From Naegleria gruberi (lineage: Eukaryota): 64,000 nt of DNA. Below, piece after piece: positions 1 through 64,000 of the stretch (positions within the stretch are counted from its first letter, which is position 1; each line of letters starts with the position of its first letter). Under the pieces are notes generated by a model that worked only from the letters and a program-made list of their open reading frames with translations, did not search any database and had not been told where the DNA came from. The DNA is taken from the NCBI GenBank assembly GCA_000004985.1, contig GG738908.1; one strand, given 5' to 3'. Both the position numbers and the translations under genes were made by a program.

Positions 1-1735
1 ACCATTACCATATAAAGTTAATAATGTCAAGGCTTGATTAAAATTAAAATTATTATTAATAGTTTTTAATGGTGTTATTTGATTTTTTAATATAGTTTTT
101 GAAATTAATTCTTTATAATTATTCAATTCAGTTTTAATATATTGTAATGATGTTAAATTATTTAATGCAATTCTTAAATTTACTACTTTTGGATATAATT
201 CTAATGATTTAGTATTTAAAACATTACATTGTGATGATACATCATTATAACATGTTGTTTTACCTTGATTATATGCTGCATTTACTAAATATTTATAATT
301 TTCTAATTTTAAATCATCAAAATCATTCAATGTTGTATTTAATTCTTGAAATGTATTACTTGCATTTAATAAATTCATATAATTATTAATATTATTATAA
401 TAATTTAAATAAGTTATATTCATATTAGTTAAATTAATTAAAGAATATTGATTTTTAAATTCTATAATAGGTAATACTTGTTTTAAATTATTTAAATTTA
501 TATTTGATAAATCTAATGTATTATTAAATAAAATAGAAATGGATGAAATAACTTGTTGATTAATATTTGAAATACTATTAATAGAATTATAATATTTTGT
601 AATATCACCATTTACAAAAGTATTTAAAAGAGATTTAGATGAAGAATAATAATCAAATAAATTAACATTTGGTAATTCAACAAAAGTATCATTAATATAT
701 TTAATATCTTTAATTAAATTATCAATACAATTAGTTTGTTGTAAAATTGAATTAAAAAATAAAACTTGTGAATAAATATCTTGAATAAATTGTAAAGATG
801 GAATTGAATTGATGGCAAATGTTAAACTTCTCAAATCATCTTTTAATAATTTATACTTGTTTGGTAATGTTTGATTAACATCTTGATTAAATAAATTTAA
901 ATTATTAAAAGTTAAATTTAAATTTGAAATTTGATTAAAAGATAATTGTAATTCATTTAATTTTAATTTTAATTCAAATTCTGATGGTAATTGTGATAAA
1001 GTATTATTCATATAAATTAAATTATTAATTAATGTTATAATTGGTAATTTAAATAAATTAATATTATTTTGTAATATAATAGTTTCATAATATAAATTTG
1101 ATAATTGTACAATATTACTTGTTTTAAAATGTGATAATTCATATTCATATTGATTAAAATATTTAAAATTTAATGTTGTATTCGTTTGATCTTGTAATGT
1201 TTGTATTGTATTTATAGAATAATCTATTGTTGTAATTTTATTTAAATTTAAATTAATTAAATCAATTAAATTAATTAAATTATTTAAAGAATTTGATAAT
1301 CCAATAATAGAATTTTCAAATATCAAAGTAGATGTTTTTAAATTATTAACATGATCATCACCAACTGTAATAAATAATTGTTTTAATTCAATAATTGAAT
1401 CTTGTAATGGTTTAATTCTATTTAAAATATTATTATTTAAATAATTATTTATATTATTAATATTTAATTCAATATTATTTATAGAAGGTACTTGTTCTGT
1501 TATAGAATAAACACATTGATTCCATTCTGATAATTTACTTGCTGTTGGTAATTTACTTAATAAACTTGTTTTAAATTGATTATATTGTGTTTCTAATTGT
1601 GTTACTATTGTTGGTAAATTTTTAGCAAATTCTAATACACTTGATACAAGTGTTTCAATTTCATTATAACTATTTATACCCTTATTTATAAAACTACTAA
1701 TTTCTATATTAGATTGATATGCAAACACAAACCAT
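1..1735 (-). CDS. Asn/Ile/Leu-rich low-complexity protein, function unknown. The 3' end runs off the window edge. Proposed structure: ATG at 1735..1733, a 52-nt intron (1681..1732) immediately after the start codon, then an open frame down to position 1.
   Basis: The minus-strand frame is open continuously from 1680 to 1 and reads MGINSYNEIETLVSSVLEFAKNLPTIV... The only in-frame way to reach an ATG is a GTTTGT...AAATAAG intron after the start codon. The donor is non-consensus, so the 5' structure is tentative. Confidence 0.45.
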
Positions 1736-1827
1736 ACTCTTTTTTAAATTATATATTTTAAATATATTATTATATTTTATAAATATTAATTTATATTGTT
1801 AATATATTATTATATTATTAATAATTA

Positions 1828-2484
1828 TTATATAATTAAAATTAAATTAATAAATATAACATACATTAATAAAGCAATATTTAAAATAACCCATATAAGT
1901 AAAATAATTCTAAAAGCACATATAATTCTCTTTCTCTTTTCATGATCTTTTGCCCATGCACCATAATTATCTAATCTAAATTTTTGATCTCTTTCACCAA
2001 GTTTACAACAACAACAAGAACCAATTGAATAAAACAATGCACCTAAAAAACAACAAAATTCAACAAGTAAAATTCCTAAACAAATTAAACCTAATGCACC
2101 ATATGCACCAATACCTTCAGCATAATCAACTAACATTGATATAGCTGTTTGATTAGAAATATCAAAATTTGTAATTACTTTAGGTGCTGAACGTGTATCT
2201 AATTTCCTTGTTCCATAATTGTATAATGTTAATCTAGGTAATACTGATACTAATTTTACAATATTCTTATCAATACCTGTTCCTAAATTAAATATTGCTG
2301 ATGATAAGGATTCAATACCTTTATTCATAATAGAATCTCTTAATGATGAATATTCATTACTAGTTGCAATTACACCTGTACTTTCTGTACTTTCTGTATA
2401 TTGTACGTTAAATGTTAATAATATTAATACTATTAACATTATGGAATATATTAATATATTATTATAGATTGATAACCTTTTCAT
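1828..2484 (-). CDS. small membrane protein (218 aa) with an N-terminal signal/anchor and a C-terminal cluster of transmembrane segments including a CCCC motif; function unknown
   Basis: Complete ORF with start and stop. Hydrophobic N-terminus (LIYSIMLIVLILLTF) and C-terminal hydrophobic segments (GALGLICLGILLVEFCCFLGALFYSIGSCCCC, IILLIWVILNIALLMYVIFINLILII). Confidence 0.4.
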   Translation of the reverse strand: MKRLSIYNNILIYSIMLIVLILLTFNVQYTESTESTGVIATSNEYSSLRDSIMNKGIESLSSAIFNLGTGIDKNIVKLVSVLPRLTLYNYGTRKLDTRSAPKVITNFDISNQTAISMLVDYAEGIGAYGALGLICLGILLVEFCCFLGALFYSIGSCCCCKLGERDQKFRLDNYGAWAKDHEKRKRIICAFRIILLIWVILNIALLMYVIFINLILII

Positions 2485-3119
2485 TCTCTATATATGTTAG
2501 TTGTATTTGTAGTATTTGTTATTGGTTATTAAATAGAAATGATGAGGATGAGAGAAAGGAGGATGAAGAGTAATAAACCTTCAAGAAGCCTTTTGTAATA
2601 TGTTACTAAGGAATATTGAGGAGTAGGACAACAATCAATAAATATATACACGAGAGAGAGATGAGAATATTTTCTTGAAAATGTTAATGATGCGCAAAAG
2701 CAGTTACTATTGTTGGTTTGATAAATCCTTAAAGGCTTGGATTTTTTTAGAGAGAATTTTTCGCTTTATTTACTGTGTGGTGATGTTGATTAACTTGGAA
2801 CTGAAAATGCCCTTAACAATATTATTCCCTTCTTCTAAGTGAGGCTGGAATGCATATTCTAACACCTCTCAAAAAAATTTATAACCGTTTGATTGAAATG
2901 TCCATAACAGTCACTGTGGTTTTCCTCTCTTACGCTGCTTCCATGTTTATACATTAACAGATGATGAAGGAACAAAATGTTTATCACCTCTCTTAATATG
3001 GATTTATTTCATGGGTGAAATACAACAATTCTAAGAAGGAATCAACTTAAGGTACTATTAATTTTTATAACATAACATCCTTAATGAACCTTCACAAACC
3101 AAATTAAATAGAAATAAGA

Positions 3120-3191
3120 TCCCGTGTAGTCCAATGGCTAGGATACCTGGCTTTCACCCAGGAGGTCCGGGTTCAATTCCCGGCATGGGAG
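3120..3191 (+). tRNA. tRNA-Glu (anticodon UUC)
   Basis: 72-nt cloverleaf: acceptor TCCCGTG/CATGGGA, anticodon loop CTTTCAC (anticodon TTC), T-arm CCGGG-TTCAATT-CCCGG. Confidence 0.85.
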
Positions 3192-3210
3192 GATTGTTTT
3201 ACAATGTGAA

Positions 3211-3666
3211 TTATTTATTTGGTTTTTGTGGGTATGACATTACTCTTTGATACAAGTCTAAAACCTCCAATTCTGATTCAGTGTTGTTATCTAAAACATT
3301 TTCATTCAATTTCACCATTCTATCAAGATTAGCTCTAATTTGTTTCCTCTCTTTTGAACTCCAAGCTCTTGCATATCTTTCAATAAGATTTTGCATCAAG
3401 TAATCAGTGTCAACTGTTTTGGGATTTTCACCAAGTTGTGTCAATATTACTTGTTGTTGATCATTATCGGAACTATTGATCAATGTGAAATGTTGTGCAT
3501 TTAGCAAGAATTGTTCTCCATATCGTTTGGCAACTCCATTACACATCTTGAGGAATAATGATGGAAAGGAGGAATAAAATTGTGGAATTACTTCAATTCC
3601 CACAAGATCAGAAGAAACAAAATACACAATAAAGTGTTGCATTTTTATTGTGTTGACATAGAACAA
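3211..3666 (-). CDS. hypothetical small protein (about 140-150 aa); function unknown (possibly a longin/roadblock-like fold, not established)
   Basis: Complete ORF with non-repetitive composition: MQHFIVYFVSSDLVGIEVIPQF...QNLIERYARAWSSKERKQIRANLDRMVKL. No recognisable family signature. Confidence 0.4.
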   Translation of the reverse strand: MFYVNTIKMQHFIVYFVSSDLVGIEVIPQFYSSFPSLFLKMCNGVAKRYGEQFLLNAQHFTLINSSDNDQQQVILTQLGENPKTVDTDYLMQNLIERYARAWSSKERKQIRANLDRMVKLNENVLDNNTESELEVLDLYQRVMSYPQKPNK

Positions 3667-3787
3667 GATTTAAATATAGATCTACCAAGGTTACAAAGGT
3701 GTAACGGCAGGAAAGCTCATGGTCACATTTTATGCCTGAAAACCCAATCTGAGTCCGATTAAGGTTATTCTGATTTCAAAAAGAACG

Positions 3788-3845
3788 TAAGCCTAACACG
3801 CTTAAGGTCGCGGGTTCAAGCCCCGCTCGCTGTAACCTTTTAACA
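3788..3845 (+). pseudogene. 5'-truncated tRNA-Val(AAC) pseudogene: the 3' 48 nt of the tRNA (anticodon stem to acceptor end) plus 10 nt of 3' flank, identical to the intact tRNA-Val gene at 40254..40327
   Basis: taagcctaacacgcttaaggtcgcgggttcaagccccgctcgctgta followed by accttttaac is identical to the reverse complement of 40244..40301. The D-arm and 5' acceptor half are absent (upstream is ...tttcaaaaagaacg). Confidence 0.75.
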
Positions 3846-3913
3846 TATGCTTAATGGTTCAAAATTCAAACATTCCTTAATTCCTGAACAACCTCAATTT
3901 AGTGTTCATGTAA

Positions 3914-3987
3914 GCCTTCCTAGCTCAGTTGGCAGTAGCGCTGTCCTAGTAAGACAGAGGTCTTGGGTTCGATTCCCAAGGGAGGCA
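3914..3987 (+). tRNA. tRNA-Thr (anticodon AGU)
   Basis: Acceptor GCCTTCC/GGGAGGC, anticodon loop CTAGTAA (anticodon AGT), T-arm TTGGG-TTCGATT-CCCAA, discriminator A. Confidence 0.85.
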
Positions 3988-4180
3988 AGGTTTTAGTGTT
4001 AGACTTAGATTTTCGTTCAGAGAAATGAGTTTACATCTGATATTTAAATTTTTATCAATGATGTGTGAGTCAATTTTATATTTTCAATAATATTTTAGTG
4101 CTTCTGCAACAACAAAATAATTTTCAATTTAATTATTGATTTACTCGAAGAAAGAACAATAAAATTATCAAGTTAAAAAA

Positions 4181-7100
4181 ATGTTGAAAAAACTCACAAA
4201 TGTTCTCTCAGCTTCAACAACAACATCATCATCATCGGCTGCTGCTTCTTCTACCACTTCCATAGTAGCATCCATGAATTCCATGATGATGAAAAATAAT
4301 TTATTATTAACAAAGAATAATTTAATTCATCATCATCATCAATCGAAGGCTTCTTTTTCATCACTATTAAATGTGAGTCATTATGAATCATCATCACCTT
4401 CCGATAATATTAGTAGTAATATACAAACAACAACAACAACACAAAAGGCTCCAAGTAAAAATTGTACTACTAAAAAGTACATTGAAGATACTAAACCATC
4501 AAAGGCTTCTTCTACTAATATTAATGGTCATTCATCTACATCATCATCTACATCATCATCCTCTCAAAAGATAGTTATTAATACAAAATTAAATACTAGT
4601 GTTAAAAACTTTATTAGAAATTCATCATCCTCATCATCCGCATCCGCATCATCCTCATTAATTCAAAGTGAAAATGATAAAAAGATTAAAAAACAAAAAA
4701 GTACAGATTTAAAATCACTTTCATTAAAACTTCATGAACCTTTATTTGGAAGTGAAAGTGTTGAAAATATTTCTAAATTAACAGAATATTCAAATCAAGT
4801 AAAAGAAAGAATATTAAAATTATATCAAAATTATGAACCATATCAATATGTTGAATTAACAAGATATTTACTTTATTTAAATCAAGTACAATATATTCCT
4901 GATGTTATTACAATGGCTAATAAGAATAGAAATGTAATTTCACATTATTCATTTGCTAAAGAATTAGCTTATCAATTAGAAAGAAAAGGAAAACATATTC
5001 ATAGTCATTTAAATGAATATGAAGGTATTGATACTAAATTAATATTAAATCAATGTTCTAAATGTTTAGATTTAATGATTTCAAGTGGATATAAAGCTGT
5101 TAAAACTACAAATACTGATATTTTCATTGACATGTTATGTTATAGAATTAAAATGTTTCATCATTCAAATGATTTTAAAGGTAATTTTTAATTATTTTTA
5201 ATATATTTAATTTAATTATTTTTATTTAATTTTAATATTAATATAGGACTTAAAAAATTATTTGAAAATCAATTAAAACCATTAACATCAAGATTTTTAA
5301 CACATCCAGTAGTATTATGTAAATTATATAATGTATTAGGACATGTTTTAATTGAAATGAATGAATTAAATTATTTATATGAACAAGTTTATGCTAAAAA
5401 TATTAATAATCATTTTAATATAGTTAAATTAGTTAAAAAAGGAATATCAGGTACACCATTATTTGTAACAGTATCTGAATTACTTTCTAAATCTAATATT
5501 TTACATACAAATATAGCAAGTAAATTAAGTTTATTAGGAGTTGAATATTTAGAATTAGCTAAAAAAGAACAAGATGCAGAATTTTTAAAAAAATTAGGAG
5601 GAACAATATCAAAAACATATGGAGATTTATTTGATGTTGATAAAAATAATTTATTACCATTGGAAAATTACTTTTCATTCTATTTAAATTTTATTTCATA
5701 TTATTGGAATTTATATAGTGATGTATTAGATAGAAAATTACTTAAATATGTTTCTGTTAGATTTTTATATTTATATGCTCGATTAGTACATGATTCTGCA
5801 TATGATGTTAGTAGTTCAAGAGAAGCTGAATATGTTCATCAAGTTTTAATTGAAAATCAAATTCCATTAACAAATGATATTTATCATTGTTTACTTGTTA
5901 TTTATGCACATACTGGTAAACAAGATTTATGTGAAAATTTATTTAATACTATTATTAATAGTAGTAATGATAATATGAATGATATGAATGATAGTAATGA
6001 TATGAATAATATAAATTTAAATAATATCAATGATATGAATAATAATATGAATAATATGAATAATTCTAATAATTCTAATAATTCTAATAATAATTCTAAT
6101 AATATTTATGATAGTAAAAGAACAATTTATCAATCAATGGTAAATGCCTATTCAATTATGGGTAATTTTGAAAAGGCACTTTATTATGCAACACAAGTTA
6201 AAATGAATATTGAAGTATTGAATGCATTATTAAAATCAGTTGCAACATTATGTTTACCAAATATGAGAAATTTAAATGATGAAGATTATATATTATCATG
6301 TTTACAAAAAACAATACAATTATTTGCAGATCATTCAATTCAATATGATGGTATAACATTGAATACATTAATTAATATATATGGATTATTAGGTAAATTA
6401 CCATATATGATAAAACATTTTCAAATGTTAGTTGATAATATAAATTTTAAAGAATATGTTAATGCTATTACATTTACAACAGTAATTAGACATTTATGTA
6501 TGAATGATCATTTTGATTCAGCACTTGATATGTTTAATCGTATGAAAGAATTAAATATTAAACCAACACGTGTAACTTATAAAGTATTACTTGAAGGAAT
6601 GATATTAACAGGTAAAGATTGTTTACCAATGATTATGCAAAATATGAAATATGATAATATTAGTATGGATGATCATTTAGTTGGATCAATTGTTTTATAT
6701 TATGCTAGTAGAACTAGAAATGAACAACAATTAATGGATATATTAAGTGTTGTTGATAGACATAAAAGTGAATATACTCCAAAAGTTTATGAACATTTAG
6801 TTTTATTTTATTGTAAAATTAATAATTTTTCAAGAGCAAGATTTTTAATTTATGAAATGTTAGAACGTGGTGTTACTCCTACAATGAGAACATTTACACA
6901 TTTTATTACATTTTTACATACACATATGGATTCATTTGATTTATTACATATTTTATTACCTATTGAACAAGATATTGTAAATTATATTACACAAAGAAAG
7001 AAGGGTGAATTAAATAGTTTATCTAATACTATTTTTGATGGTAAAGATTTAGGTATTGGCCTAAGTTTATTACAAATAATGTTACAAAAAGTTGATTTTA

Positions 7101-7771
7101 CACAATTACAAACTAAAATTGAACATTTATCAAGAGATCATTATTTAAATAAGAATGTTTCTTATATTTTATCAGGTTTAATTAAAACAGATCCAAATGC
7201 AAATGTTAAAGATTTTATTGATAATTTAATTTATTTATTTGAATCATGTGGATGTTCTCCATTTGCATCTACAAATGCTCTATTTTTACATGTTATTAGT
7301 GAATTAAAAGGTCCATTTGAAATGAAACAATTTTATTTGGAAATGAAGAGAAATAATTTAATACTTGATATTAGATCATTTAATTTATATTTGGAAGCTT
7401 TATTAAATACTGAAGGTTCAAATTCAATGTGGAAATATTTTAATACTTGTCAAACAAGTACTGAAATTATTAAAATTAATCCAGATATTGATACTCTTCA
7501 TATTTTAATTAGATCTATTAGAGATTTTAATGATATGGAATTTATTTTATCTAAATATAGACAATTTATTGATAGTACTAGATATTTATCACCAAAACTT
7601 TCAAAACAAAAAACATCAAAGAATTCACCACAATTAAAAGAGGAAATTATTTCTTCAATTTTAGATGCAATTGAATCAAAGGAATCATTAATTAATAGTA
7701 ATCAAACTTTTGCAAGAATTGAACAAATGAAAGATTATTTACAAAAGGCTTTATTTTCATTCATTGAATAA
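4181..7771 (+). CDS. pentatricopeptide-repeat (PPR) protein, probably mitochondrial. Two exons, 4181..5180 and 5247..7771, with a 66-nt intron GTAATT...ATATAG. Ser-rich N-terminus and an internal poly-Asn tract.
   Basis: The two ORFs join in frame across a GT..AG intron (KG|GLKKLFENQ...MNELNYLY). There are repeated 35-aa helical PPR-like units (e.g. HCLLVIYAHTGKQDLCENLF, NTLINIYGLLGKLPYMIKHFQ, NAITFTTVIRHLCMNDHFDSALDMFNRMKELNIKPTRVTYKVLLEGM). Confidence 0.7.
5958..6108 (+). repeat. coding trinucleotide microsatellite (AAT/GAT/ATG units) encoding an N/D/M/S-rich low-complexity tract inside the PPR gene
   Basis: Imperfect trinucleotide repeats such as gatatgaat gatatgaat gatagtaat ... aattctaat aattctaat aattctaat. 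Confidence 0.6.
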
Positions 7772-7858
7772 ATAAGTGTTTATGTTTTTATTATTATTAT
7801 TATTATTTTTATTACAAATATTTGTAAATCATTCAATTGATAAGTTTTTTAAACCTCT

Positions 7859-9782
7859 TTATAAATAAGATATCAATAAAATAATTGCTGCAATCATCAA
7901 GGTAGTAGTCAATGAAAATTGAACTGATTGATTTGAATCATTAATCTTTGTACTATTGGCAGCTTTAGTTGATACAATTGGTGTTGTTCCATTATTAGTA
8001 CCATTATTTGATGAAGGATTTGAATCACATGGATAAGTATTTGGAATGACATATCCACTCGTTGTTAATTTGAGTGGTTTGAATCCATAAACATAATTTT
8101 CATAAACCAATTCAATAGACAAGGCAACATAACCTTTAGATGGATTAGGAACAAAAACTTCCCAAATATTTGGAGAAGTTTCAGATAGATTTGATGACTT
8201 GTAAGTTGATCCAATGGTTGAGATACGGAAATCTCTAGCATTAGTATTGTTTGCTCTCCATAGATAGACATTGGTTGGTTTGATGGCACTCCAAACAGTA
8301 ACCTTGACACCAGTGTCATTGTAGATGTGTGTGAAATTGTATTGAGGTAGATCAATTCCCTTAACTTGCATATAGTAGAATAATAAAACTGATTCTATTG
8401 CATCTGAATTGGAAAGTGAGTGTCCAGTATTTGGAATGTAACGTAAATATTTCTTTTTAATATTATTCATGTAAGGCCAACTCTTTAAAGCAAGATCTAT
8501 TCGATTAATCATGTAAACATATTAATTATATCAATTCATGAATATATAAAGTTATAACACACTTACCTGGCCACATAAATTCATCACCAAGAGCATTAAT
8601 CATATAAATTGAATGATTAGAAAATCTTTCTCTATATGCAAATGGATCTTCAACTGATTGTAAAGCAGTAAATGCAGCAGAATCAACTCTCTTCAAAACA
8701 CCTTGAGAATTGTAATCATATAAAGCAATTGGCCAAGCACAAAGTGATTTGTTAATTTGAAGAAAACTTTCTTTCAAATTCAAAACTTGAATACTCAAAG
8801 GAACGAGTGCTTTAACACGAGGATCAGCAGCTCCAACCAACCAAGCTAATTTATCACATTTTAATATAAATTGTAACAATTATTGTAAACTTACCAGCCC
8901 AACCTATTATTTTCAAAATTTCAATATTTCAATAAATTTAACACACATACCTCTTTTAGAACCTCCACCAATTGTAAACTTTGAAATTGAAACTCCATTC
9001 AATTTGTAAATAAAATCCTGAACAACATCCATAGCTCTCATTGAAGTTTTTGCCATTGGTAAATGACCCAACCATTCATAAGTTTTCACATCAATTGGTA
9101 AATTTGCTGATGATTTATTCTCATATCTATCCATGAATGCATTCCATGTGTAGGCAATGAGTGAATCTTCACTACGTGCTGTTTTACTTGGATCAGATGA
9201 AAATATAATTGGTTGATTGGGAACAATGTAAACTTGTGAAGTGATGGAATTAGTGGAATAGGCAAGTGATTTTAACATGTCATTGGTGGTTGGCATTGAT
9301 GTGGAAGAAGAACCTCCTTCAATATATAAAAATGATTCATTATAGTTGGTGTTGAGATTATTTGGAACCACAATGGCTAGATAATGTTTCCTTTTTAGTA
9401 GTATACATTATTATTGTAATAATATTCAATAGTATTATTATATTGTAAATAATGAAATAGGATAGAAATAACAAACATACCATTGTGATGAAGAACCCAA
9501 TTCTTCACTTGTTAACCAATCAACTCCTCTAATAGAGAGAGTATACATAACACCCACATCCAATGTAGTTGTTGCCAATAAAGTATAATTCATTGCAGGT
9601 GATGATAAATTTACATAGTCATCAATTATTGCTGCACTCACACACAAGGAAAATAGAGCAGCAACAATAAAGAATGCACCAATGATGAAGGTATATTTAA
9701 TGACCCGTTGGTTATTTGGTTCATGCATTTTTTTCTTTTTGTTAATAATCAACGAGGATGGCAATGAATTGAAAAAAGTCAA
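7859..9782 (-). CDS. PhoPQ-activated pathogenicity-related protein family member (AprA-like secreted/membrane-anchored protein). Exons 9782..9481, 9390..8951, a 9-nt microexon 8903..8895, 8845..8567 and 8496..7859. The start may instead be the ATG at 9728.
   Basis: All introns are GT..AG and 47-90 nt long (donors GTATGT/GTAAGT). Family motifs are ...FTIGGGSKRGWAAWLVGAADPRV... and ...GDEFMWPDLALKSWP... The N-terminal signal anchor is IIGAFFIVAALFSLCVSAA and the C-terminus is hydrophobic (GPI/TM-like). Confidence 0.7.
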
Positions 9783-9926: not shown

Positions 9927-11282
9927 TTACTGATTTTCAATTGAAAATCTTGAATTATGTACACACAGAGCAATTGTATGAGGTTGAGGTTCTGGTCTTG
10001 GTGCTCCTCTTTTTGTCGTTCTAGGCATTTCGTAGTGACCTTCATGCACCACTTTAGCTTGATTAATACTGAATCCTTGAACATTTAAGAATGATGAGCT
10101 CCTTTTAAATGGTTCTTCACTAGTGGGTCTTTTGAATGACTCTTTTACAGAATAGGTGCTCATTGCAGATCGAGGTCTCAGCGTATCTGATACTATGGAG
10201 ACAACATCTTGATGTCTAGTCGTTTGTTTGTACATTACCTTAGAGAGAGCTGATTTTGGTCTATTTTTTAGGGAACTCGAATTATCATATGCAAGGGTTG
10301 ATGGATTGAAAATTGTTCTTGAATTGACTGTTCTTGGAACGCTTTGCCTAGTTGAATACTTTTGCATGAGTGAGGTATGAGTTCTTCTCCTTTCCTCACC
10401 TTCTAAATGTGCCGAAGTTGAAAAGTCACTAGCACTTCCTTCAAAACTATTATCAAGCACATATGAATGAGGTCTAGCAGTTATAGAATTTCGTTTTGCT
10501 GCATTTCTTACTTTTTCTGAGAGGGCATGTTTGTTAATTTCAATAAAATCCTTCTTATCACTCATTCTACTGCTACACCTTGATGTGCTTATATCATCTC
10601 TATATTCATGAAGTACGGTCGTTATCAATGGTCTTTCATGATGTTCATCCAATGTTTGATGCCATGGATTGGTGATGGCTGCATTACTTTCATCTCTTCT
10701 TTGCATTTCATAAAATGATTCATCGTATAATTCTGATGGAGTTTTTGATCGATGACTTGAATCCAGCTTTCCTTTCTTTGTTAAAGGTGCAGAACCTGGA
10801 CGTGGAATTATAGGAGCCCTCTTTGCTATCGAATACACGAAGGATGATTGAGGTCTTTGAGAGTTTTTGGAATTATTGAGAGATGGCGAATTATTATAAC
10901 TTCTAATTGAAACTGCATCACCTCCCCACGACACAGGTTCACTCACATTATCATCATGATCTAATTTATAGGCTGAAGTATTGATATGAATATTATTTTC
11001 CTTCTCCACCTCTTTTTGTTTAAATTTTGGATGTGCTGATGAGGGTCTACTACCATTGTTTTGTCCTGTTGAAAGCTTTTGGAAGGAACGTAATGAGTTT
11101 AAATCATCTTCCATTAAATGTTTGCTATTATTGTTGTTGTTGTTATTAGTAATAGAGCCTCTCCTAGAAGATGAAGCTGATTGGGGCCTAGGTTTATTCT
11201 TATCCGATATTATTGATATCGAAAGATCTGTTATGTGAGAGCGATTATAATTTGATGATGACGATACAATGCTGTTGGGCAT
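9927..11282 (-). CDS. Ser/Asn/Arg/Pro-rich, probably disordered protein (451 aa); function unknown
   Basis: Single long ORF with low-complexity composition (SSSRRGSITNNNNNNNSKHL..., many RS/SR and PRP motifs). GC content is slightly higher than in the neighbouring genes. Confidence 0.5.
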   Translation of the reverse strand: MPNSIVSSSSNYNRSHITDLSISIISDKNKPRPQSASSSRRGSITNNNNNNNSKHLMEDDLNSLRSFQKLSTGQNNGSRPSSAHPKFKQKEVEKENNIHINTSAYKLDHDDNVSEPVSWGGDAVSIRSYNNSPSLNNSKNSQRPQSSFVYSIAKRAPIIPRPGSAPLTKKGKLDSSHRSKTPSELYDESFYEMQRRDESNAAITNPWHQTLDEHHERPLITTVLHEYRDDISTSRCSSRMSDKKDFIEINKHALSEKVRNAAKRNSITARPHSYVLDNSFEGSASDFSTSAHLEGEERRRTHTSLMQKYSTRQSVPRTVNSRTIFNPSTLAYDNSSSLKNRPKSALSKVMYKQTTRHQDVVSIVSDTLRPRSAMSTYSVKESFKRPTSEEPFKRSSSFLNVQGFSINQAKVVHEGHYEMPRTTKRGAPRPEPQPHTIALCVHNSRFSIENQ

Positions 11283-20159: not shown

Positions 20160-20266
20160 AAAACATGCATAGCACTCTTAATATATTAAATTATTGCTTA
20201 ACATCCAATTTATGTAAACCTCTAGATGTGAATGTTATAACAAGAAACTATTCTTAATGAATGTAA

Positions 20267-20340: not shown

Positions 20341-20456
20341 AATGTTTTAATTTTTACTCTCAGATTCATGTGGAAAATTCAATCAGGATTACAATAGTAC
20401 AATATGGATTAAGGTGATTTTTGTAGGAGTGTTAAGGTGATCTTCCTTAATGTGCT

Positions 20457-20527
20457 CGTCTCGTGGTGTAATGGTAGCATAGTGGACTTTGAATCCATTG
20501 ACGGAGGTTCGATTCCTCCCGAGACGG
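20457..20527 (+). tRNA. tRNA-Gln (anticodon UUG)
   Basis: Acceptor CGTCTCG/CGAGACG, TGGTGTAATGGT D-arm typical of tRNA-Gln, anticodon loop CTTTGAA, T-arm GGAGG-TTCGATT-CCTCC. Confidence 0.85.
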
Positions 20528-20924
20528 TAAACGTGGCGAGCCATAGAATTTTATTTAATATATTTCATTATAGCTTGATGTACACCCTTTGATAATGGAT
20601 TCGAATGAATAATTGTAAAATCGAGTCGATTCATCGAATTAATTTTGTGAAACAAATAGTAAGGACTGAAATAGGTAATCTGTTGAGCTGGTTATTCAAG
20701 TCAATCACAGTTGTCTGATTATTGGATATCATTAGACCAGGTGTAATTCTCCTCACTGCTAACCAGCTTTCATGAAACTCGTCACAGAGCTTGGTTTCAA
20801 TTTTATGTGTGTTGAATTGATCATCTATTCAATTCTTTCTTATTTCCAGTCTAAAATTATTTCATAAATTATTTACAAAATATTTATTATTACAATTATA
20901 ATATATTATTAATTATTATCTAAA

Positions 20925-24300: not shown

Positions 24301-25521
24301 TTATTTGTTATCATTAAACATGTGCTTTCTTTCAGGGTCTATACCTTCATAAACCATACTCTTTTCGATGGTTTTAACAAATTGGATACCTTTTTGAATT
24401 TCCAAACTCTTTTGCAAAAATTGAATAAATCTTTCATCAGAAATGAAACAATCTGGTGTGATACGTTTCTTTTGATTTTTAACAAGGTCATAATGCTTAA
24501 AAATCCAATACAGAATTTCTAAAGCAAAATCCTTGTCAAATTCAACTTTAAACATGTTACAACCTTGAGTTACAGTCCAACTGCAATAATAACATTGCTT
24601 AGTATTGGTTGCTATCATTTGAAGATACATTTGAGGAATGTAATAAACTGGAACTTCTTCATGGGGTTTCTTCTTAATGTAGGAAAAGGTGAGTGGAATA
24701 TCTCTACCTGACTCACGGTCCTCCTTCTTGACATACTTTTCAACAAAGCATGTTGGACACTTAATTTCTACACATGAATGAATTTCATTAGTATCAATAG
24801 ATTGTAAAAGACCATCTGGGGATGCACCAAGAGCTGGCAACTTTTCAAAGCTCAGTTCATACTTTTCCAAATCTTCCTTTGTAAAAACTTGATTTAATCT
24901 ATCTTCAGTAATGATATAAAATCCAGTTTCACAAAACATGTCATAGTCAAAATGAGAATTCAAAATAGTTGAAACACAATTGAGTTCATGATTAGATCCC
25001 CAATCCATAAAAACTCTCTTAACAATTTCCTCCTTTGGATTTTCATTGGATGGTTGTTTAAGTTGATCAATTTCCTCATCTGTCATACCCAACTCTTTCA
25101 ATTCATCCCTTGTTAAAATTGATTCATAAATTGTACCAACAGTTTCCTTGTCTTGTTTTAAAAATGATTTTGATAAATCTAACATTTTCACAGCTGCAGG
25201 AGAAAAGAATCCGAGAGCTTTACTCAACCTAGAGGCAGTAATTCTATTTGATCTCAACTCGAGCCATTTATCACTTCTTTGTGGAAATAAATGACAATTA
25301 TTTTCATCAATAGGTTCATTAGGAGGATTCAATGGCACATATCTATTAACATAAATTTCCTTGATATCTTCATAGTAAAGTGCTTTCCATTTCACGTTTG
25401 GATTCTCTCCGTTAAATTTGTTATTGTTCTTTTCTTGATGGATTGATAATTTTTCAATACTTTCAACTAGACTTTGCTCATCGGAATGATCAATATGTTC
25501 TTCTTCGAATTGTTGAGACAT
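24301..25521 (-). CDS. YqaJ/lambda-exonuclease-like PD-(D/E)XK nuclease domain protein (viral recombinase-type exonuclease) with an N-terminal acidic extension
   Basis: Motifs RITASRLSKALG (YqaJ motif I), GASPDGLLQS and EIKCPTC (the SPDG ... E-x-K-C-P catalytic core shared by lambda Exo, YqaJ and herpes alkaline nuclease). Convergent with the CASTOR-like gene; only 28 nt separate the two stop codons. Confidence 0.65.
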   Translation of the reverse strand: MSQQFEEEHIDHSDEQSLVESIEKLSIHQEKNNNKFNGENPNVKWKALYYEDIKEIYVNRYVPLNPPNEPIDENNCHLFPQRSDKWLELRSNRITASRLSKALGFFSPAAVKMLDLSKSFLKQDKETVGTIYESILTRDELKELGMTDEEIDQLKQPSNENPKEEIVKRVFMDWGSNHELNCVSTILNSHFDYDMFCETGFYIITEDRLNQVFTKEDLEKYELSFEKLPALGASPDGLLQSIDTNEIHSCVEIKCPTCFVEKYVKKEDRESGRDIPLTFSYIKKKPHEEVPVYYIPQMYLQMIATNTKQCYYCSWTVTQGCNMFKVEFDKDFALEILYWIFKHYDLVKNQKKRITPDCFISDERFIQFLQKSLEIQKGIQFVKTIEKSMVYEGIDPERKHMFNDNK

Positions 25522-31010: not shown

Positions 31011-31526
31011 ATGTCTCTAGACTCAGATAGTGATGATGACCGCCTTTTTGAAAAGGAATCCAAGTTATACAACTCTTCAACACTTTTAGATGAAATTAAA
31101 CAAAAGCATGGAGATGACATTCATAAAAAAGTGGAAACAATGATTGCTACTGCTACAAGCTCAACTGTAAAAGTATCAAGCCATTCCGATAGATTTTCAT
31201 CTTCATCTAATATTAAAGGAGAAGAAATTGAATATTCTCGTTATGATTGTGGGAAATATGATAGTGGAGCTGATTGCATGTACATTAATATTCGTCACAA
31301 ACTGAGTAATGGTTGGTCCTCACTATTTTCGTTTGAGGATGACTATGTTAAAAGAGAAAAAAGAGTTAAAATTGGACAGAATGTCAGAATATTGAGGGAG
31401 AAAATGAGATTTCATTCATTGGATGATAAAACATTTATGTCATGCCTGATAGTTGCAATGAATCTTGGACCAGGTGATAAAGAGAGACTTTTAAAATCTG
31501 TAAAGGAGGTAAATCATGATGAATAA
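31011..31526 (+). CDS. hypothetical acidic protein (171 aa); function unknown
   Basis: Complete ORF MSLDSDSDDDRLFEKESKLYNSS...MNLGPGDKERLLKSVKEVNHDE. Its last 70 nt plus about 40 nt of 3' flank are duplicated at 33174..33281. Confidence 0.45.
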   Translation: MSLDSDSDDDRLFEKESKLYNSSTLLDEIKQKHGDDIHKKVETMIATATSSTVKVSSHSDRFSSSSNIKGEEIEYSRYDCGKYDSGADCMYINIRHKLSNGWSSLFSFEDDYVKREKRVKIGQNVRILREKMRFHSLDDKTFMSCLIVAMNLGPGDKERLLKSVKEVNHDE

Positions 31527-31565
31527 TTTCATTATAAAATTTCCAAACACAAATTTATTGAGATA
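31458..31565 (+). repeat. direct repeat copy A (~108 bp, about 90% identical to 33174..33281), covering the 3' end of the CDS 31011..31526 and its 3' flank
   Basis: atgaatcttggaccaggtgataaagagagacttttaaaatctgtaaaggaggtaaatcatgatgaata...aaatttccaaacacaaatttattgagata aligns to 33174..33281 with a few substitutions and small indels. Confidence 0.8.
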
Positions 31566-31782: not shown

Positions 31783-33028
31783 CTATGCTCTCCTATATTT
31801 AATGATATATTCAGGATAACATTGACATTTGTCATAAACAATAAATTCTCTATAAGAATGAATAGAAGTATTAGAATGTCCAATAACACTGTCATAAACT
31901 CTCTTATTTGTAAAACTAATTTCTGGGGGTCTTCTTATTAGTCATTCCGTTTGGAGTAAAATAAGTTTGTTTTCCCAACACAACTCTACATAACAAGATT
32001 GTGAATTCATTATTTGAGTCTGGTGTACAATATTGATCTGATTTTGAACAATATTCGGCAAAATAAATACCAGCTCCAAATAATCCACTCAAACTTGCAA
32101 CTCTTTCATCAGATCCATGCTCAGTAATTGCTTGAACGTATTCAGGTTTAGTTCCATGCCATAAATATTTTTCATTCATATCAGAATTCAATCCACTATT
32201 TTTCATCCATTCGAATGCTGTTGATGATTTTGGAATTTCTTCAGTTTTAACTTGAATATAGTTTGGAGGATCTTGATATGATTGTAAATGATTAACTCTT
32301 GCTGCAAAAGATGAAAATAAAGAATAATTTTCCACTCTATGAACACTTGAAACTATTAATTTAGAATAAAATGCTTTTTGAATCTGATCTCTACCTGATC
32401 CGAGTGTACGGGTGTTACATGTGGAATTCATAATTTCTTGTACAATATCTTTCAAATATTGTGAAACATCAATTACATAATATCTTGAAGTGAATGATAA
32501 GAAAGTATTATTCTTCCAATAACTTGGAAGTGAAACAATTAATTGTTGTGATTGGGTTGATGGTTGAAACACCTTCTCAATCAACCATTGAACACTTGAA
32601 TAATGTCCATTGACTTGAACAATGGATGAATAATTTGATTTCTCATCACTTTTAACACCCAAATATAATTGACTGTTGAGATTGATCAGAGAAACTGAAT
32701 TATGATCACATTTCTTGACAATCCATTGGTAATTTTTCCAAGCAGGATTATCCCATTGAATGATAGAAACTCCCTCATTCATATATCCATTGTCAGCACA
32801 AACATATTTACCGCTGGCTTCACATTTGATGAGAACAATTAGATCATTCTGGTTGTTTCCTGTATCACTACTTTTTATCAAGACAAATTGACTACGACTG
32901 ACACTTGGATTCTCCCATAATTGAAAATAGGCTCCATTATTTGAAAAATCACTAGAAATATTCAAATATTTCCCACTGTTAACATTTTTAATAGTAACAG
33001 GTGTGTTTAATAGTGCTTGAACATGCAT
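31783..33028 (-). CDS. ricin-B lectin (beta-trefoil) plus PARP-type ADP-ribosyltransferase catalytic domain protein. Intact ORF 31916..33028. The catalytic C-terminus, including the Glu motif, continues in the +2 frame down to a stop at 31783..31785 after a 1-nt frameshift at a G5/C5 homopolymer (31925..31929).
   Basis: N-terminal QxW repeats (FQLWENP, IIQWDNP, YQWIV, VQWLIEK). PARP signature YLWHGTKPEYVQAITEHG...GLFGAGIYFAEYCSKSDQYC...ILLCRVVLGK. The downstream frame encodes FTNKRVYDSVIGHSNTSIHSYREFIVYDKCQCYPEYIIKYRRA*, matching the tankyrase C-terminus HSVTG...[21 protein letters not shown]. Removing one C from the CCCCC run fuses the two frames. Confidence 0.7.
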
Positions 33029-33173: not shown

Positions 33174-33281
33174 ATGAATCTTGGACCAGGTGATAAAGAG
33201 AGGCTTTTAAATCTGTAAAGGAGGTTAAATCATGATGAATAAAGCCATTGTAAAATTTCCAAACACAAATTTATTGAGATA
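33174..33281 (+). repeat. direct repeat copy B. It contains a frameshifted pseudo-copy of the last ~23 codons of gene 31011..31526 (LMNLGPGDKERLLNL*) and ends on the stop codon of the minus-strand gene 33271..34065.
   Basis: See copy A. The 1-bp deletion ttttaaaatctg to ttttaaatctg breaks the frame. Confidence 0.8.
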
Positions 33282-37167: not shown

Positions 37168-37686
37168 ATGCAAAAATACGGTTCTAAGAAGATTGGTGCA
37201 ACCAGTGCTACATCAAGCAATAAGCAAAAGGTACAAATTGAATTAACTGATGAACAAAGACAAGAAATTAAAGAAGCCTTTGATTTATTCGATATGGATG
37301 GTTCAGGTAAAATTGATGCAAAGGAATTGAAGGTGGCAATGAGAGCACTCGGTTTTGAACCAAAGAAAGAGGAAATTAAAAAGATGATCTCCGGAATTGA
37401 TAATGGATCTGGTAAAATTGATTTTAATGATTTCCTTCAATTAATGACAGCAAAAATGAGTGAAAAGGATAGCCATGCCGAAATAATGAAAGCTTTCCGT
37501 CTCTTTGATGAAGACGATTCTGGATTTATTACATTTGCAAATCTCAAAAGAGTTGCTAAAGATTTGGGTGAAAATATGACTGATGAAGAATTGAGAGAAA
37601 TGATTGAAGAAGCTGATCGATCGAATCAGGGACAAATCTCAAAGGAAGATTTCCTCCGTATTATGAAAAAGACAAACCTCTTTTAA
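37168..37686 (+). CDS. centrin (caltractin), an EF-hand protein with four EF hands and a basic N-terminal extension
   Basis: [54 protein letters not shown]...[76 protein letters not shown] is near-identical to canonical centrins. The ORF track ATG at 37087 is probably 5' UTR; the likely start is MQKYGSKK at 37168. Confidence 0.85.
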
Positions 37687-40163: not shown

Positions 40164-40253
40164 ACTCAAATTATTGTGATGTTGTAAATATTAAATATTT
40201 TTGTCTATCAAAATGAAGTAGAATTGAAAAATGTAAATAATCAGTTAAAAGGT

Positions 40254-40327
40254 TACAGCGAGCGGGGCTTGAACCCGCGACCTTAAGCGTGTTAGGCTTA
40301 CGATCTAACCAACTGATCTATCGCTGC
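40254..40327 (-). tRNA. tRNA-Val (anticodon AAC)
   Basis: Sense sequence: acceptor GCAGCGA/TCGCTGT, D-arm GATC-AGTTGGTTA-GATC, anticodon loop CTAACAC, T-arm GCGGG-TTCAAGC-CCCGC, discriminator A. Confidence 0.85.
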
Positions 40328-40476
40328 TTACATTTTGTGAATCATAACCTTATTCCACGTAATCTGGAAAGAGCAATTTCAGTTCTGTTATTTAAAAGTT
40401 TCTGTTTTGGCTGGAATTAAAACAGAATATTTCCATTTTAATATCTTTAAAAATAGAAAATAAAAAGCTTAAAAAA

Positions 40477-57408: not shown

Positions 57409-57535
57409 ATTATTAGAAGAGCTAAGGCCTGGTTTATGATTGGTTTGGTGGTAAAGATTTTATGTTGTTTAGATGTTGTAAAATGAATTAATTTCAAGTA
57501 TTGTTAAATAAAGGTATAATTCAAAATGAATGTAA

Positions 57536-57608
57536 GGGGATGTAGCTCACATGGTAGAGCGCTTCTTTAGCATGGAAGAGGTACGGGGATCGATACCCCG
57601 CATCTCCA
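57536..57608 (+). tRNA. tRNA-Ala (anticodon AGC) with the canonical G3:U70 identity pair
   Basis: Acceptor GGGGATG/CATCTCC (G3-T70 wobble), D-arm GCTC-ACATGGTA-GAGC, anticodon loop TTAGCAT, T-arm CGGGG-ATCGATA-CCCCG, discriminator A. Confidence 0.85.
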
Positions 57609-57685
57609 GCTTACTTTTTCTTTTGTTGGGAGGCTTTACAATAACAATTCCATTTTCCCTAACACGTTAATAATCGAATATGTAT

Positions 57686-59179
57686 TTAGAGTCGAATTCC
57701 AATTATCTCTGAAAGACTATCAATGGTGGAAATATCATCCTTTAAAATTTCTCTCTTATAAAGGTCAATCGGTTCAAAACCAGTTCTTAACATTGCAATA
57801 AATCTTCTCTTTTGAGATGAAAAATAACTTGTTTTCCATTCTTTTTCAGTCAGCAAATACCATGCTTTCAAGAATCTCTTTTCATAGAAAAAGTGAATCT
57901 TCTTGGAAAGAGTTGGATGTGATAGTTCCACAAATGAAGAAATAATTGAGTTAATTACATATAACTCCCTTGAAGAAATAGTTTCCATAGCATAGTAGAA
58001 CTCGTCAAGATTGTTTGTAAAAAAGTCAACTACTAATTTCTGTCCAATAGGAACATTTGATACTCCACTTATAGATTGAACGCTTTGATAAATGCATGTT
58101 GCAACAATTGTAGCATCCTTTTGAAATTTCTCATCGATTAACGAGTAGGCGTCAGGAGTTGAATAAATCAATCGTCTAACAATTTCCTCATCGTTTAGGA
58201 GAGTTTCACCACAGTCTGTCACTATTGTAGGTACATTATGCATTCCATAATACACTAAATATCTTAAAAGTTTCTCCTTTAAAACATTATTGCTTGACAT
58301 TTCATAACAATCCTTTTTCTGTCTGAAAAAACTGAAACAAATTATTGCTGCAAGCTTGTCACAATAGTAGCAATCAATAGTTGAAAATAATTGGTAAAGC
58401 TCTTCAATAGAGCCAAGAAAATAATCATTATCACTTTTCAGTATTGAAATAATTCTCTCACAATCGGTATACTTTTTAGAAACAAGTACAAGCTCATTTG
58501 GTATTTTCAAGTATTGTTCCTCAAAATAGGTTTCATAGTAAGCTTTCCAATGAAATATTCTCATGCACTGATTTATAACCCTGTCTACATCCGATACCAC
58601 TGAAAGGAGACTAGAAACTGGAATATTCAACGTGTCAACACTAATGATTTTTTCTGTACCCTGTGATAATTCCTCTACGTTTACCTTTTTCTTGATTATA
58701 TTTATGAAAGCTGAAACCATTTCAATAATTCTGTCAATTTTAAAAAAGAAGTCTTCATATTCATTTCTGTTAACTTTAAATAACCTTCGGAATTTACGTT
58801 CCATTAGTACTAAATCTCTCTCAAATTTTAAGTGTTCAAGAAAAGTCAACTCTGGAAAATTCAAATAAAACACAATTGGCAAAACTTCACTCAAATCATC
58901 GTTTTCAATATTGATGAATTGCTCTTGCAATTTTTCAAAACGTCCATTTCGTATGCCAAGACAATAAAATTGAATAAATTTGTCAAATTGGAATGGATTA
59001 TGCTTGTCCATTGATCTAAGAATTTTCGAACAAGTATGTGGAAATGCAAGGCTTATTCCGTGCTGGTCATTATCTTGATCAAATTCATCTTTAAAATTTG
59101 TACTGGCACGCAACGGAAGCTGATAAATAAACGAATAGATGAGAGGAAATAAATCATCATCCAAATCTTGTAATTTCAT
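57686..59179 (-). CDS. hypothetical protein (497 aa); function unknown
   Basis: Single complete ORF of non-repetitive sequence (MKLQDLDDDLFPLIYSFIYQLPLRASTNF...); no family recognised. Confidence 0.45.
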   Translation of the reverse strand: MKLQDLDDDLFPLIYSFIYQLPLRASTNFKDEFDQDNDQHGISLAFPHTCSKILRSMDKHNPFQFDKFIQFYCLGIRNGRFEKLQEQFINIENDDLSEVLPIVFYLNFPELTFLEHLKFERDLVLMERKFRRLFKVNRNEYEDFFFKIDRIIEMVSAFINIIKKKVNVEELSQGTEKIISVDTLNIPVSSLLSVVSDVDRVINQCMRIFHWKAYYETYFEEQYLKIPNELVLVSKKYTDCERIISILKSDNDYFLGSIEELYQLFSTIDCYYCDKLAAIICFSFFRQKKDCYEMSSNNVLKEKLLRYLVYYGMHNVPTIVTDCGETLLNDEEIVRRLIYSTPDAYSLIDEKFQKDATIVATCIYQSVQSISGVSNVPIGQKLVVDFFTNNLDEFYYAMETISSRELYVINSIISSFVELSHPTLSKKIHFFYEKRFLKAWYLLTEKEWKTSYFSSQKRRFIAMLRTGFEPIDLYKREILKDDISTIDSLSEIIGIRL

Positions 59180-63531: not shown

Positions 63532-63871
63532 CATGAGACTTGCCTTTTTGCTGGTGTGGGCAACAAATTTCGGTTGAAGTTTGAAGATTGTATCAAACTA
63601 ATCCGTTGATATGCAGTTTTCACAACTGTAAAGAGTGATGGAGGGTTTATTAAAACGTCAAACTGTTAGTTCACAATCTTCACAATAATATTTCAAACTG
63701 ACTCATTTACAAACCCAATAGCATTGAACAAATAAAAGGATTTTGAGTTATATTGCGTGCCCAAAGCGAACAGACATGTTTCATATGTTTTCAATACGCA
63801 GCAACAGGTTTTGAGTTCCCATGAAATTCAAGTATTGTTAAATAAAGGTATAATTGCAAATAAACGTAAGG

Positions 63872-63944
63872 GGAGGTGTAGCTCACATGGTAGAGCGCTT
63901 CTTTAGCATGGAAGAGGTACGGGGATCGATACCCCGCATCTCCA
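63872..63944 (+). tRNA. tRNA-Ala(AGC)-like second copy with an altered acceptor stem (GGAGGTG/CATCTCC gives A3:U70 instead of G3:U70); possibly a pseudogene or a non-alanine-charged variant
   Basis: The body from the D-arm to the 3' end is identical to the gene at 57536..57608. The 5' acceptor strand reads gggGAGgtg versus ggggatg. About 45 bp of shared 5' flank (ttcaagtattgttaaataaaggtataatt) and shared 3' flank (gcttactttttt) show the two belong to a duplicated unit. Confidence 0.6.
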
Positions 63945-64000
63945 GCTTACTTTTTTAACAGCAGGCACTAATTTGACAAATATTAAACGTTTCGTAAAAG

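Follow-up and report, generated by a model that had tools for sequence, protein, structure and literature searches.

A 5'-truncated piece of a tRNA-Val(AAC) gene lies between tRNA-Glu and tRNA-Thr genes in the 64,000-nucleotide stretch of Naegleria gruberi nuclear DNA analyzed here (the window), and by its sequence it is an inert pseudogene remnant that makes no tRNA. It is of a known kind, namely, tRNA pseudogene debris in an unstable tRNA gene (tDNA) cluster (PMC2888827). What is added here is its two-layer structure, in which a decayed layer and a perfect layer of Val sequence stand side by side. The reading that we favor, and to which we give a little less than an even chance, is that this is an old tRNA-Val locus whose 3' block would have been rewritten by homology-guided DNA copying from an intact Val(AAC) gene. 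That some DNA-level route (conversion or repair, in situ deletion, or broken duplication) led to the inert pseudogene appears very probable. The analysis below shows how far the exact match reaches, that a probable relic lies upstream, that the two layers have diverged unequally, that no tRNA can form, and that the sister species lack the block; by what mechanism and in which direction the copying took place is what we infer.

Using the Val gene and its flanks as the BLAST query against the window, we obtained a single exact 59-nt match, 3786..3844(+) against 40302..40244(-) (E=7e-29). It comprises linear positions 26 to 74 of the 74 of the tRNA (49 nt), with the last D-stem base, G26, the anticodon arm with AAC, the variable loop, the T arm, and the 3' acceptor strand with the discriminator, followed by 10 nt of 3' flank (Table 1). 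The original prediction had placed 48 identical nucleotides at 3788..3835 and a 10-nt identical flank running to 3845. The identity holds for both parts, but the coordinates were 2 nt off at the 5' end and 1 nt off at the 3' end when set against BLAST; the tRNA part is 49 nt at 3786..3834, and the flank is 3835..3844 against 40253..40244(-). Identity is lost abruptly at both edges, on the 3' side at 3845. When one mismatch is allowed (A/T at 3785), self-BLAST carries the match to 3782 (63 nt, 98.4%), an extension in which three of the four added bases agree, which is near chance. With the T4 terminator taken as given, ACC and AAC of the flank would match by chance with a probability of about 1.5e-4, and the identity of the copied 3' flank is not due to chance.

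The likeness between the two loci is confined to this block. Self-BLAST of the window revealed no duplication beyond 59 to 63 nt, the spacer and either flank have no second copy within the 64 kb, and no intact copy of Val positions 1 to 25 was found elsewhere in the window at up to 3 mismatches. A larger segmental duplication was rejected on these grounds. The Val 3' end gave no match in a metagenome scan.

Table 1. Positions of the Val sequences and the neighboring tRNA genes in the window
Feature	Position	Strand	Basis or remark
tRNA-Glu(TTC)	3120..3191	+	Upstream member of lineage-specific tRNA block; ARAGORN, Rfam
Probable decayed tRNA-Val relic: 5' flank and tRNA positions 1 to ~39	3693..3743	+	Local alignment
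Spacer between relic and fragment	3744..3785	+	No other copy in window
tRNA-Val(AAC) positions 26 to 74, perfect copy	3786..3834	+	Within 59/59 exact match to intact gene
B box GGTTCAAGCCC inside fragment	3813..3823	+	Fits GGTTCRANNCC; identical to B box of intact gene, 40265..40275
Copied 3' flank ACCTTTTAAC: 3' trailer, T4 terminator (3838..3841), and 3 more nt	3835..3844	+	Identical to 40253..40244(-)
tRNA-Thr(AGT)	3914..3987	+	Starts 79 nt past tRNA end of fragment; Val-Thr tandem arrangement; ARAGORN, Rfam
3' trailer and terminator of intact Val, common to fragment	40244..40253	-	Sequence, BLAST
Intact tRNA-Val(AAC)	40254..40327	-	ARAGORN; Rfam 66.9 bits; all four stems fully paired

In the 64 kb, whose GC content is 31%, ARAGORN and Rfam both identify the same eight tRNA genes. 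Among them are the tRNA-Glu and tRNA-Thr genes, which had been named as neighbors of the fragment and which both programs confirmed in place (Table 1). Within the window, the intact tRNA-Val gene, 36.4 kb away and in inverted orientation, alone qualifies as a candidate donor or sister copy. A run of T4 or longer lies 3 to 7 nt past the 3' end in seven of the eight genes. TGTAA stands at -5 to -1 in four of the eight (e.g., 3909..3913, 20262..20266, 40328..40332, and 57531..57535) and, from this placement, could serve N. gruberi as an upstream promoter or initiator motif for Pol III; the tRNA-Gln gene (20456..20528) has neither TGTAA nor a T-run. The two tRNA-Ala(AGC) copies (57493..57619 and 63827..63955) are about 95% identical over flanks of some 43 nt on the 5' side and 11 nt on the 3' side. 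To judge from this likeness, which takes in 43 nt upstream, tRNA genes of N. gruberi do undergo duplication at the DNA level together with their flanks. The identity of the Ala pair stops at the T-run, like that of the Val pair, and both paralogue pairs in the window lose identity 0 to 3 nt past the T-run terminator, so the copy unit of both pairs ends at the terminator.

No working tRNA could be recognized in the fragment. ARAGORN did not call it at the default threshold, with or without introns, and a low-threshold run produced spurious calls only. The Rfam tRNA family (RF00005) gave a partial hit at 3773..3826 (model positions 9 to 63) with 26.8 bits, below the gathering score of 29. A functional tRNA gene was rejected because no complete cloverleaf exceeded the family threshold and ARAGORN called none. 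The fragment is homologous to tRNA-Val (59/59) and lacks intact positions 1 to 25, as a truncated tRNA pseudogene does. Thus, the dead tRNA-Val(AAC) pseudogene that had been proposed was borne out by ARAGORN, by Rfam, and by the failure of the joins described below.

The D-arm and the 5' acceptor strand had been described as missing. This is correct for an intact version only, since a decayed Val relic lies 49 to 93 nt upstream of the 59-nt block, collinear with the fragment and on the same strand. The relic was first flagged by aligning the flanks of the fragment against all eight tRNAs of the window. Its alignment to Val has 38 matches, 9 mismatches, and 7 gap columns; its 5' flank ACAAAGGTGTAA aligns with the Val 5' flank ACAAAATGTAA, and a TTTT falls inside it at 3728..3731. 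The local alignment score was 16 to 17, against null maxima of 14 to 15 from 1812 to 4982 real window segments of the same length. The other seven tRNAs of the window scored 6 to 10 against 3687..3737 and 7 to 10 against 3650..3785; among the eight, the relic is, by these scores, specific to Val. Reversed-query decoys scored at least 17 in 3 of 39,936 comparisons (7.5e-5 per comparison). As a targeted test of the fragment flanks, the relic has a probability of about 1e-4 per test, or about 0.0024 after correction for the 32 combinations examined; in a blind scan of the whole window, decoys also reach 17 and it would not stand out. We consider 3693..3743 a probable, not a certain, decayed Val relic. 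There was no other tRNA relic above the decoy level in the window.

The remaining sequence around the fragment is less telling. The spacer may be the 3' part of the relic, decayed past recognition (CGATTAAGGT at 3756..3765 and GTCCGATTAAG at 3753..3763). The 48 nt at 3738..3785 show no significant likeness to Val (P=0.43, empirical null), and matches to Val that had been picked out by eye (CGATTAAGGT, GCTTAATGGTTCAAAATTC, and AAGGTTA) failed their empirical nulls (P=0.43, 0.54, and 0.47). By empirical nulls, neither the downstream flank nor a longer 5' flank is significantly Val-like, nor is the 5' flank of the relic taken alone.

The two layers differ sharply in divergence. The block has no substitution in 59 positions, whereas the relic has 9 in 47 aligned columns (plus the 7 gap columns; Fisher P=4e-4), and 59 consecutive matches at the 81% identity of the relic would have a probability of 4e-6. 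To judge from these counts, the relic and the perfect block must differ in age. It follows that the block either was recently written from an intact gene or was until recently part of an intact, homogenized gene.

To place the locus in its setting, we compared it with other Naegleria species. ORF218 (1828..2484, -) and a PPR gene are neighbors in N. fowleri, where 576 nt without any tRNA separate them (our locus L001), and lie on one stretch in N. lovaniensis. In N. gruberi, the interval 2484..4181 holds tRNA-Glu, ORF143, the Val remnant, and tRNA-Thr, and we found no tRNA in the syntenic intervals of N. fowleri and N. lovaniensis. By this comparison the tRNA block would be either specific to the N. 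gruberi lineage or lost in the other species. The PPR ORF (5357..7771, 804 amino acids) matches a predicted protein of N. gruberi at NCBI with 100% identity and the orthologous proteins of N. fowleri and N. lovaniensis with 42 to 43%. In these orthologues, which have 1,053 to 1,066 amino acids, it is the N-terminal part to which ORF336 (4181..5191) aligns. From this alignment, the annotated 804-amino-acid model looks N-terminally truncated, with ORF336 as its missing N-terminal part (4181..7771, +) and a short intron or frameshift near 5191..5357.

ORF143 (3218..3646, -), which adjoins the relic, is an annotated N. gruberi predicted protein. It has one other homologue among 5.8 billion proteins, in Willaertia magna (10386..10843 of our locus L005); the two are 77% identical in amino acids and 82% in nucleotides, over the coding region only. 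The Willaertia copy is nonsyntenic and has no tRNA within 10 kb, and the syntenic interval in N. fowleri and N. lovaniensis lacks ORF143. The patchy distribution and the unusual conservation (compared with 42 to 43% for the PPR protein between Naegleria species) suggest that ORF143 is a mobile or transferred gene. Other features of the window were recorded as well. The GC content is low, at 16% in 1..2000 and 21 to 23% across the PPR gene (4001..8000), compared with about 32% elsewhere. At 24301..25521(-), amid ordinary host genes, is an ORF of 406 amino acids with a YqaJ-like viral recombinase (exonuclease) domain (E=2.5e-11), which may be of viral or transposon origin. A 109-nt direct repeat with 94% identity (31458..31565 and 33174..33281) flanks or overlaps a PARP/ricin-lectin ORF (31916..33028, -) and the ORF beside it. 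Besides this repeat, the window has no dispersed repeat unrelated to tRNA other than a weak 71% match near 369..1145.

We propose the following course of events for the Val sequences. The old tRNA-Val locus would have sat in the tRNA block with tRNA-Glu, ORF143, and tRNA-Thr, and its original copy would have decayed to the relic at 3693..3743. Far later, the 3' block (positions 26 to 74 with trailer and terminator) would have been written from an intact Val(AAC) gene, either the one 36 kb away or an identical paralogue, by ectopic gene conversion or by synthesis-dependent repair of a break at the old pseudogene. Copying out of register would have set the new piece beside the old sequence without replacing it. 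The N. gruberi genome is about 41 Mb in size. At 924 tDNAs (Bermudez-Santana et al. 2010, PMC2888827) over that length, there is about 1 tDNA per 44 kb, and a copy of the same type and on the same strand within 50 nt of the relic is very unlikely by chance, which favors a homology-guided or in situ process. Concerted evolution of tRNA paralogues by intergenic conversion is established (PMC4981973), as is the rapid pseudogenization of tDNA copies (PMC2888827). Several points count against rewriting by conversion or repair, among them the moderate support for the relic, whose score decoys also reach in the blind scan, and the lack of significant Val likeness in the 48-nt spacer and in the 5' flank alone. 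Conversion in register would replace the old sequence, so an out-of-register or microhomology-primed event must be assumed, and the 3785/3786 junction offers at most AGA as microhomology. In addition, a recent 5' deletion of a formerly intact tandem copy explains the data almost as well. The event is read here from one N. gruberi genome, and the relic was compared with the eight tRNAs of the window.

That deletion would be a truncation in situ. A tandem pair of Val genes would have stood here; the upstream gene would have died long ago, and the downstream one, held identical through selection and conversion, would have stayed intact until a recent deletion took its 5' flank and positions 1 to 25 and joined it to the relic region. 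The perfect tRNA part then needs no new copying event. The shared 10-nt 3' flank resembles that of Ala1 and Ala2, which are alike only up to the T-run, and the 79-nt gap to tRNA-Thr is typical of tandem tRNA genes here (Arg-Gln, 115 nt). Position 1 of the relic (3707) also lies only 54 nt before the start that an intact copy would have had (3761), so sequence must have been lost. However, the former Val-Val pair that this requires is evidenced by the relic alone, there is no clear microhomology at the 3785/3786 junction, and with one genome the outcome is indistinguishable from that of conversion. We regard truncation in situ as unlikely, if far from implausible.

A further explanation is a one-step partial duplication of the Val locus, or a piece of 59-nt filler DNA, that landed independently, with the relic as a chance resemblance. 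The sharp edges of the block and the lack of anything else common to the two loci fit this, as do the decoys that match the score of the relic in the window-wide scan and the reported instability of tDNA clusters (PMC2888827). On the other hand, the relic is significant in the targeted test (about 0.002 to 0.003, corrected), is Val specific and collinear, and lies on the same strand, and no extended duplication passes the 59 nt. We therefore hold an independent landing to be distinctly improbable. The original prediction was close to it in taking the fragment for a DNA-level segmental duplication broken inside the gene. A DNA-level origin is indeed the most likely, but a segmental duplication in the usual sense is not what the window holds, as nothing beyond the 59 nt is duplicated. 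Because the site already held Val sequence in the form of the relic, turnover or repair at an old Val locus accounts for it better than a broken copy dropped at a random place.

Retroposition of a mature tRNA had been excluded at the outset with the argument that untranscribed flank was copied. This argument is weak, since ACCTTTT consists of the 3' trailer and the T4 terminator of Pol III, with only AAC beyond it. Seven of the 10 flank nucleotides are thus transcribed, and the flank alone does not exclude a template derived from pre-tRNA. In such a scheme, the cDNA of a pre-tRNA-Val with its 3' trailer, 5'-truncated near position 26, would have been inserted or have templated a repair. The block ends 3 nt past the T4, so that most of its flank is transcribed trailer and terminator, and the Ala pair also loses identity at the T-run. 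N2,N2-dimethylguanosine at position 26 (m2,2G26) is a common tRNA modification that stalls reverse transcriptase, and the 5' end of the block adjoins G26, a site that often carries it. Against this, the AAC past the T-run was also copied (chance, about 0.018), and so were G26 and the base before it (chance, about 0.025), although a reverse transcriptase halted by m2,2G26 would have copied no further than position 27. Neither poly(A) nor CCA nor a target-site duplication is present, and the 43 nt over which the Ala pair is alike upstream exceed a Pol III leader. Of the 34 ORFs in the window with 180 amino acids or more, 25 were scanned (1.8 to 45.8 kb), and none showed a reverse transcriptase. 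An RNA route would thus be very unlikely.

Retroposition of a mature tRNA was rejected, as the 3' end is followed by the donor flank ACCTTTTAAC and not by CCA, and no flanking direct repeat was found. When examined as a tRNA-derived SINE, the fragment proved to have no A box, and its flanks are unique within the 64-kb window. More generally, tRNA gene copies in N. gruberi might be written or patched by way of the Pol III unit, through RNA- or cDNA-templated repair or through copying bounded by the Pol III footprint, since both paralogue pairs lose identity 0 to 3 nt past the T-run. We offer this as a long shot. If it were true, the perfect Val block would be a transcript-templated patch on an old pseudogene.

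Could the remnant have been kept for a function? It retains the consensus B box and the T4 terminator without an A box, and none that is A-box-like could be read from the sequence 30 to 60 nt upstream of the B box. The original prediction had suggested that the B box could recruit Pol III or that the fragment could act as a chromatin landmark. Its identity is perfect, and selection might be keeping it as a TFIIIC site with a B box only, a boundary of the ETC kind, or as an insulator or Pol III terminator ahead of the tRNA-Thr gene. Several eukaryotes have ETC sites (PMC11724288), and TFIIIC binding to the remnant is conceivable from its B box. However, selection on a B box would not hold the anticodon arm, acceptor strand, and trailer identical, the 59-nt perfect identity is equally expected from recency, which suffices by itself to explain it, and the whole tRNA block is absent from the sister species. 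A selected function is, in our judgment, highly improbable. Two further B-box-like matches (GGTTCAAAACC) occur outside tRNA genes, at 37351..37361(-) and 57771..57781(+); both fall within protein-coding ORFs and are probably due to chance.

The least tenable explanations are that the fragment belongs to a working split, intron-containing, or permuted tRNA-Val or that it is the att repeat of an element integrated into tRNA-Val, and their chance is practically negligible. For the former speaks the presence of the 5' relic upstream. The original prediction had itself named a 5' half nearby, joined by an intron, as the finding that would overturn the pseudogene; the relic is there, but it forms no tRNA with the fragment, and the pseudogene stands. 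Four synthetic joins of relic and fragment, as well as the unspliced sequence, were all rejected by ARAGORN. In the joins, the D stem has two of four pairs, the acceptor strand has a 1-nt deletion, and the T4 at 3728..3731 would stop Pol III. Neither downstream of the fragment nor elsewhere in the window is there a 5' half. ARAGORN with -i, the joins, the stem counts, and the 5'-half search were thus all negative, and a split, intron-containing, or permuted tRNA was rejected on the sequence evidence. Integrated elements are flanked by direct repeats of tRNA 3' ends as att sites, and identity that covers a tRNA 3' end with sharp edges is their classic mark. Here, however, the Val copies are inverted, not direct, and ordinary host genes fill the 36 kb between them (ABC transporter, SNF2, PARP, EF-hand, FF, and WD40 proteins). 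Part of this interval is syntenic with N. fowleri and N. lovaniensis, namely, its Pyr_redox_2 and UBX genes. The 20 ORFs of 180 amino acids or more between the copies yielded no integrase, and an integrase att site was rejected for all of these reasons.

By itself the remnant matters little, and annotation should mask it lest it be read as a regulatory element or a split tRNA. What modest value it has lies in capturing one moment of tRNA gene turnover in a genome whose tDNAs are unusually numerous. If many copies with the same boundaries exist genome-wide, they would bear on how tDNA families expand and stay homogeneous.

The remnant shares features with several known systems. Like an att repeat, it is a sharp-edged copy of a tRNA 3' end, but it is inverted and has host genes and no integrase between the copies. 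As in split and permuted tRNA genes, a 3' part lies apart from a 5' part, but the relic here cannot pair with the 3' part. Filler DNA at double-strand breaks repaired by synthesis-dependent end joining is tens of nucleotides long, with sharp edges and scant junction homology, and its donors usually lie within a few hundred base pairs. The block is such a short, sharp-edged copied stretch, but the sole donor seen is 36 kb away (or would be elsewhere in the genome) and the recipient was already Val related. Like ETC sites, the remnant has a consensus B box without an A box (PMC11724288), but such a site does not normally comprise the entire 3' part of a tRNA gene together with trailer and terminator, and the remnant is known from sequence alone. 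Ectopic conversion between dispersed tRNA genes, as among the serine tRNA genes of S. pombe (Amstutz et al. 1985, as cited in PMC4981973), leaves a short nonreciprocal tract between distant copies that covers the gene and a few flanking nucleotides, as seen here. Classical conversion, however, replaces the recipient in register, whereas here the tract, from a conversion that we infer, lies beside the old sequence with about 48 nt between them and positions 26 to 34 are present twice. For truncated tRNA pseudogenes, we found no described case in which a decayed and a perfect layer of one gene adjoin. In its other traits the remnant is like those pseudogenes and tDNA relics, a partial dead copy in a tRNA cluster that undergoes birth-death turnover (PMC2888827, PMC4981973).
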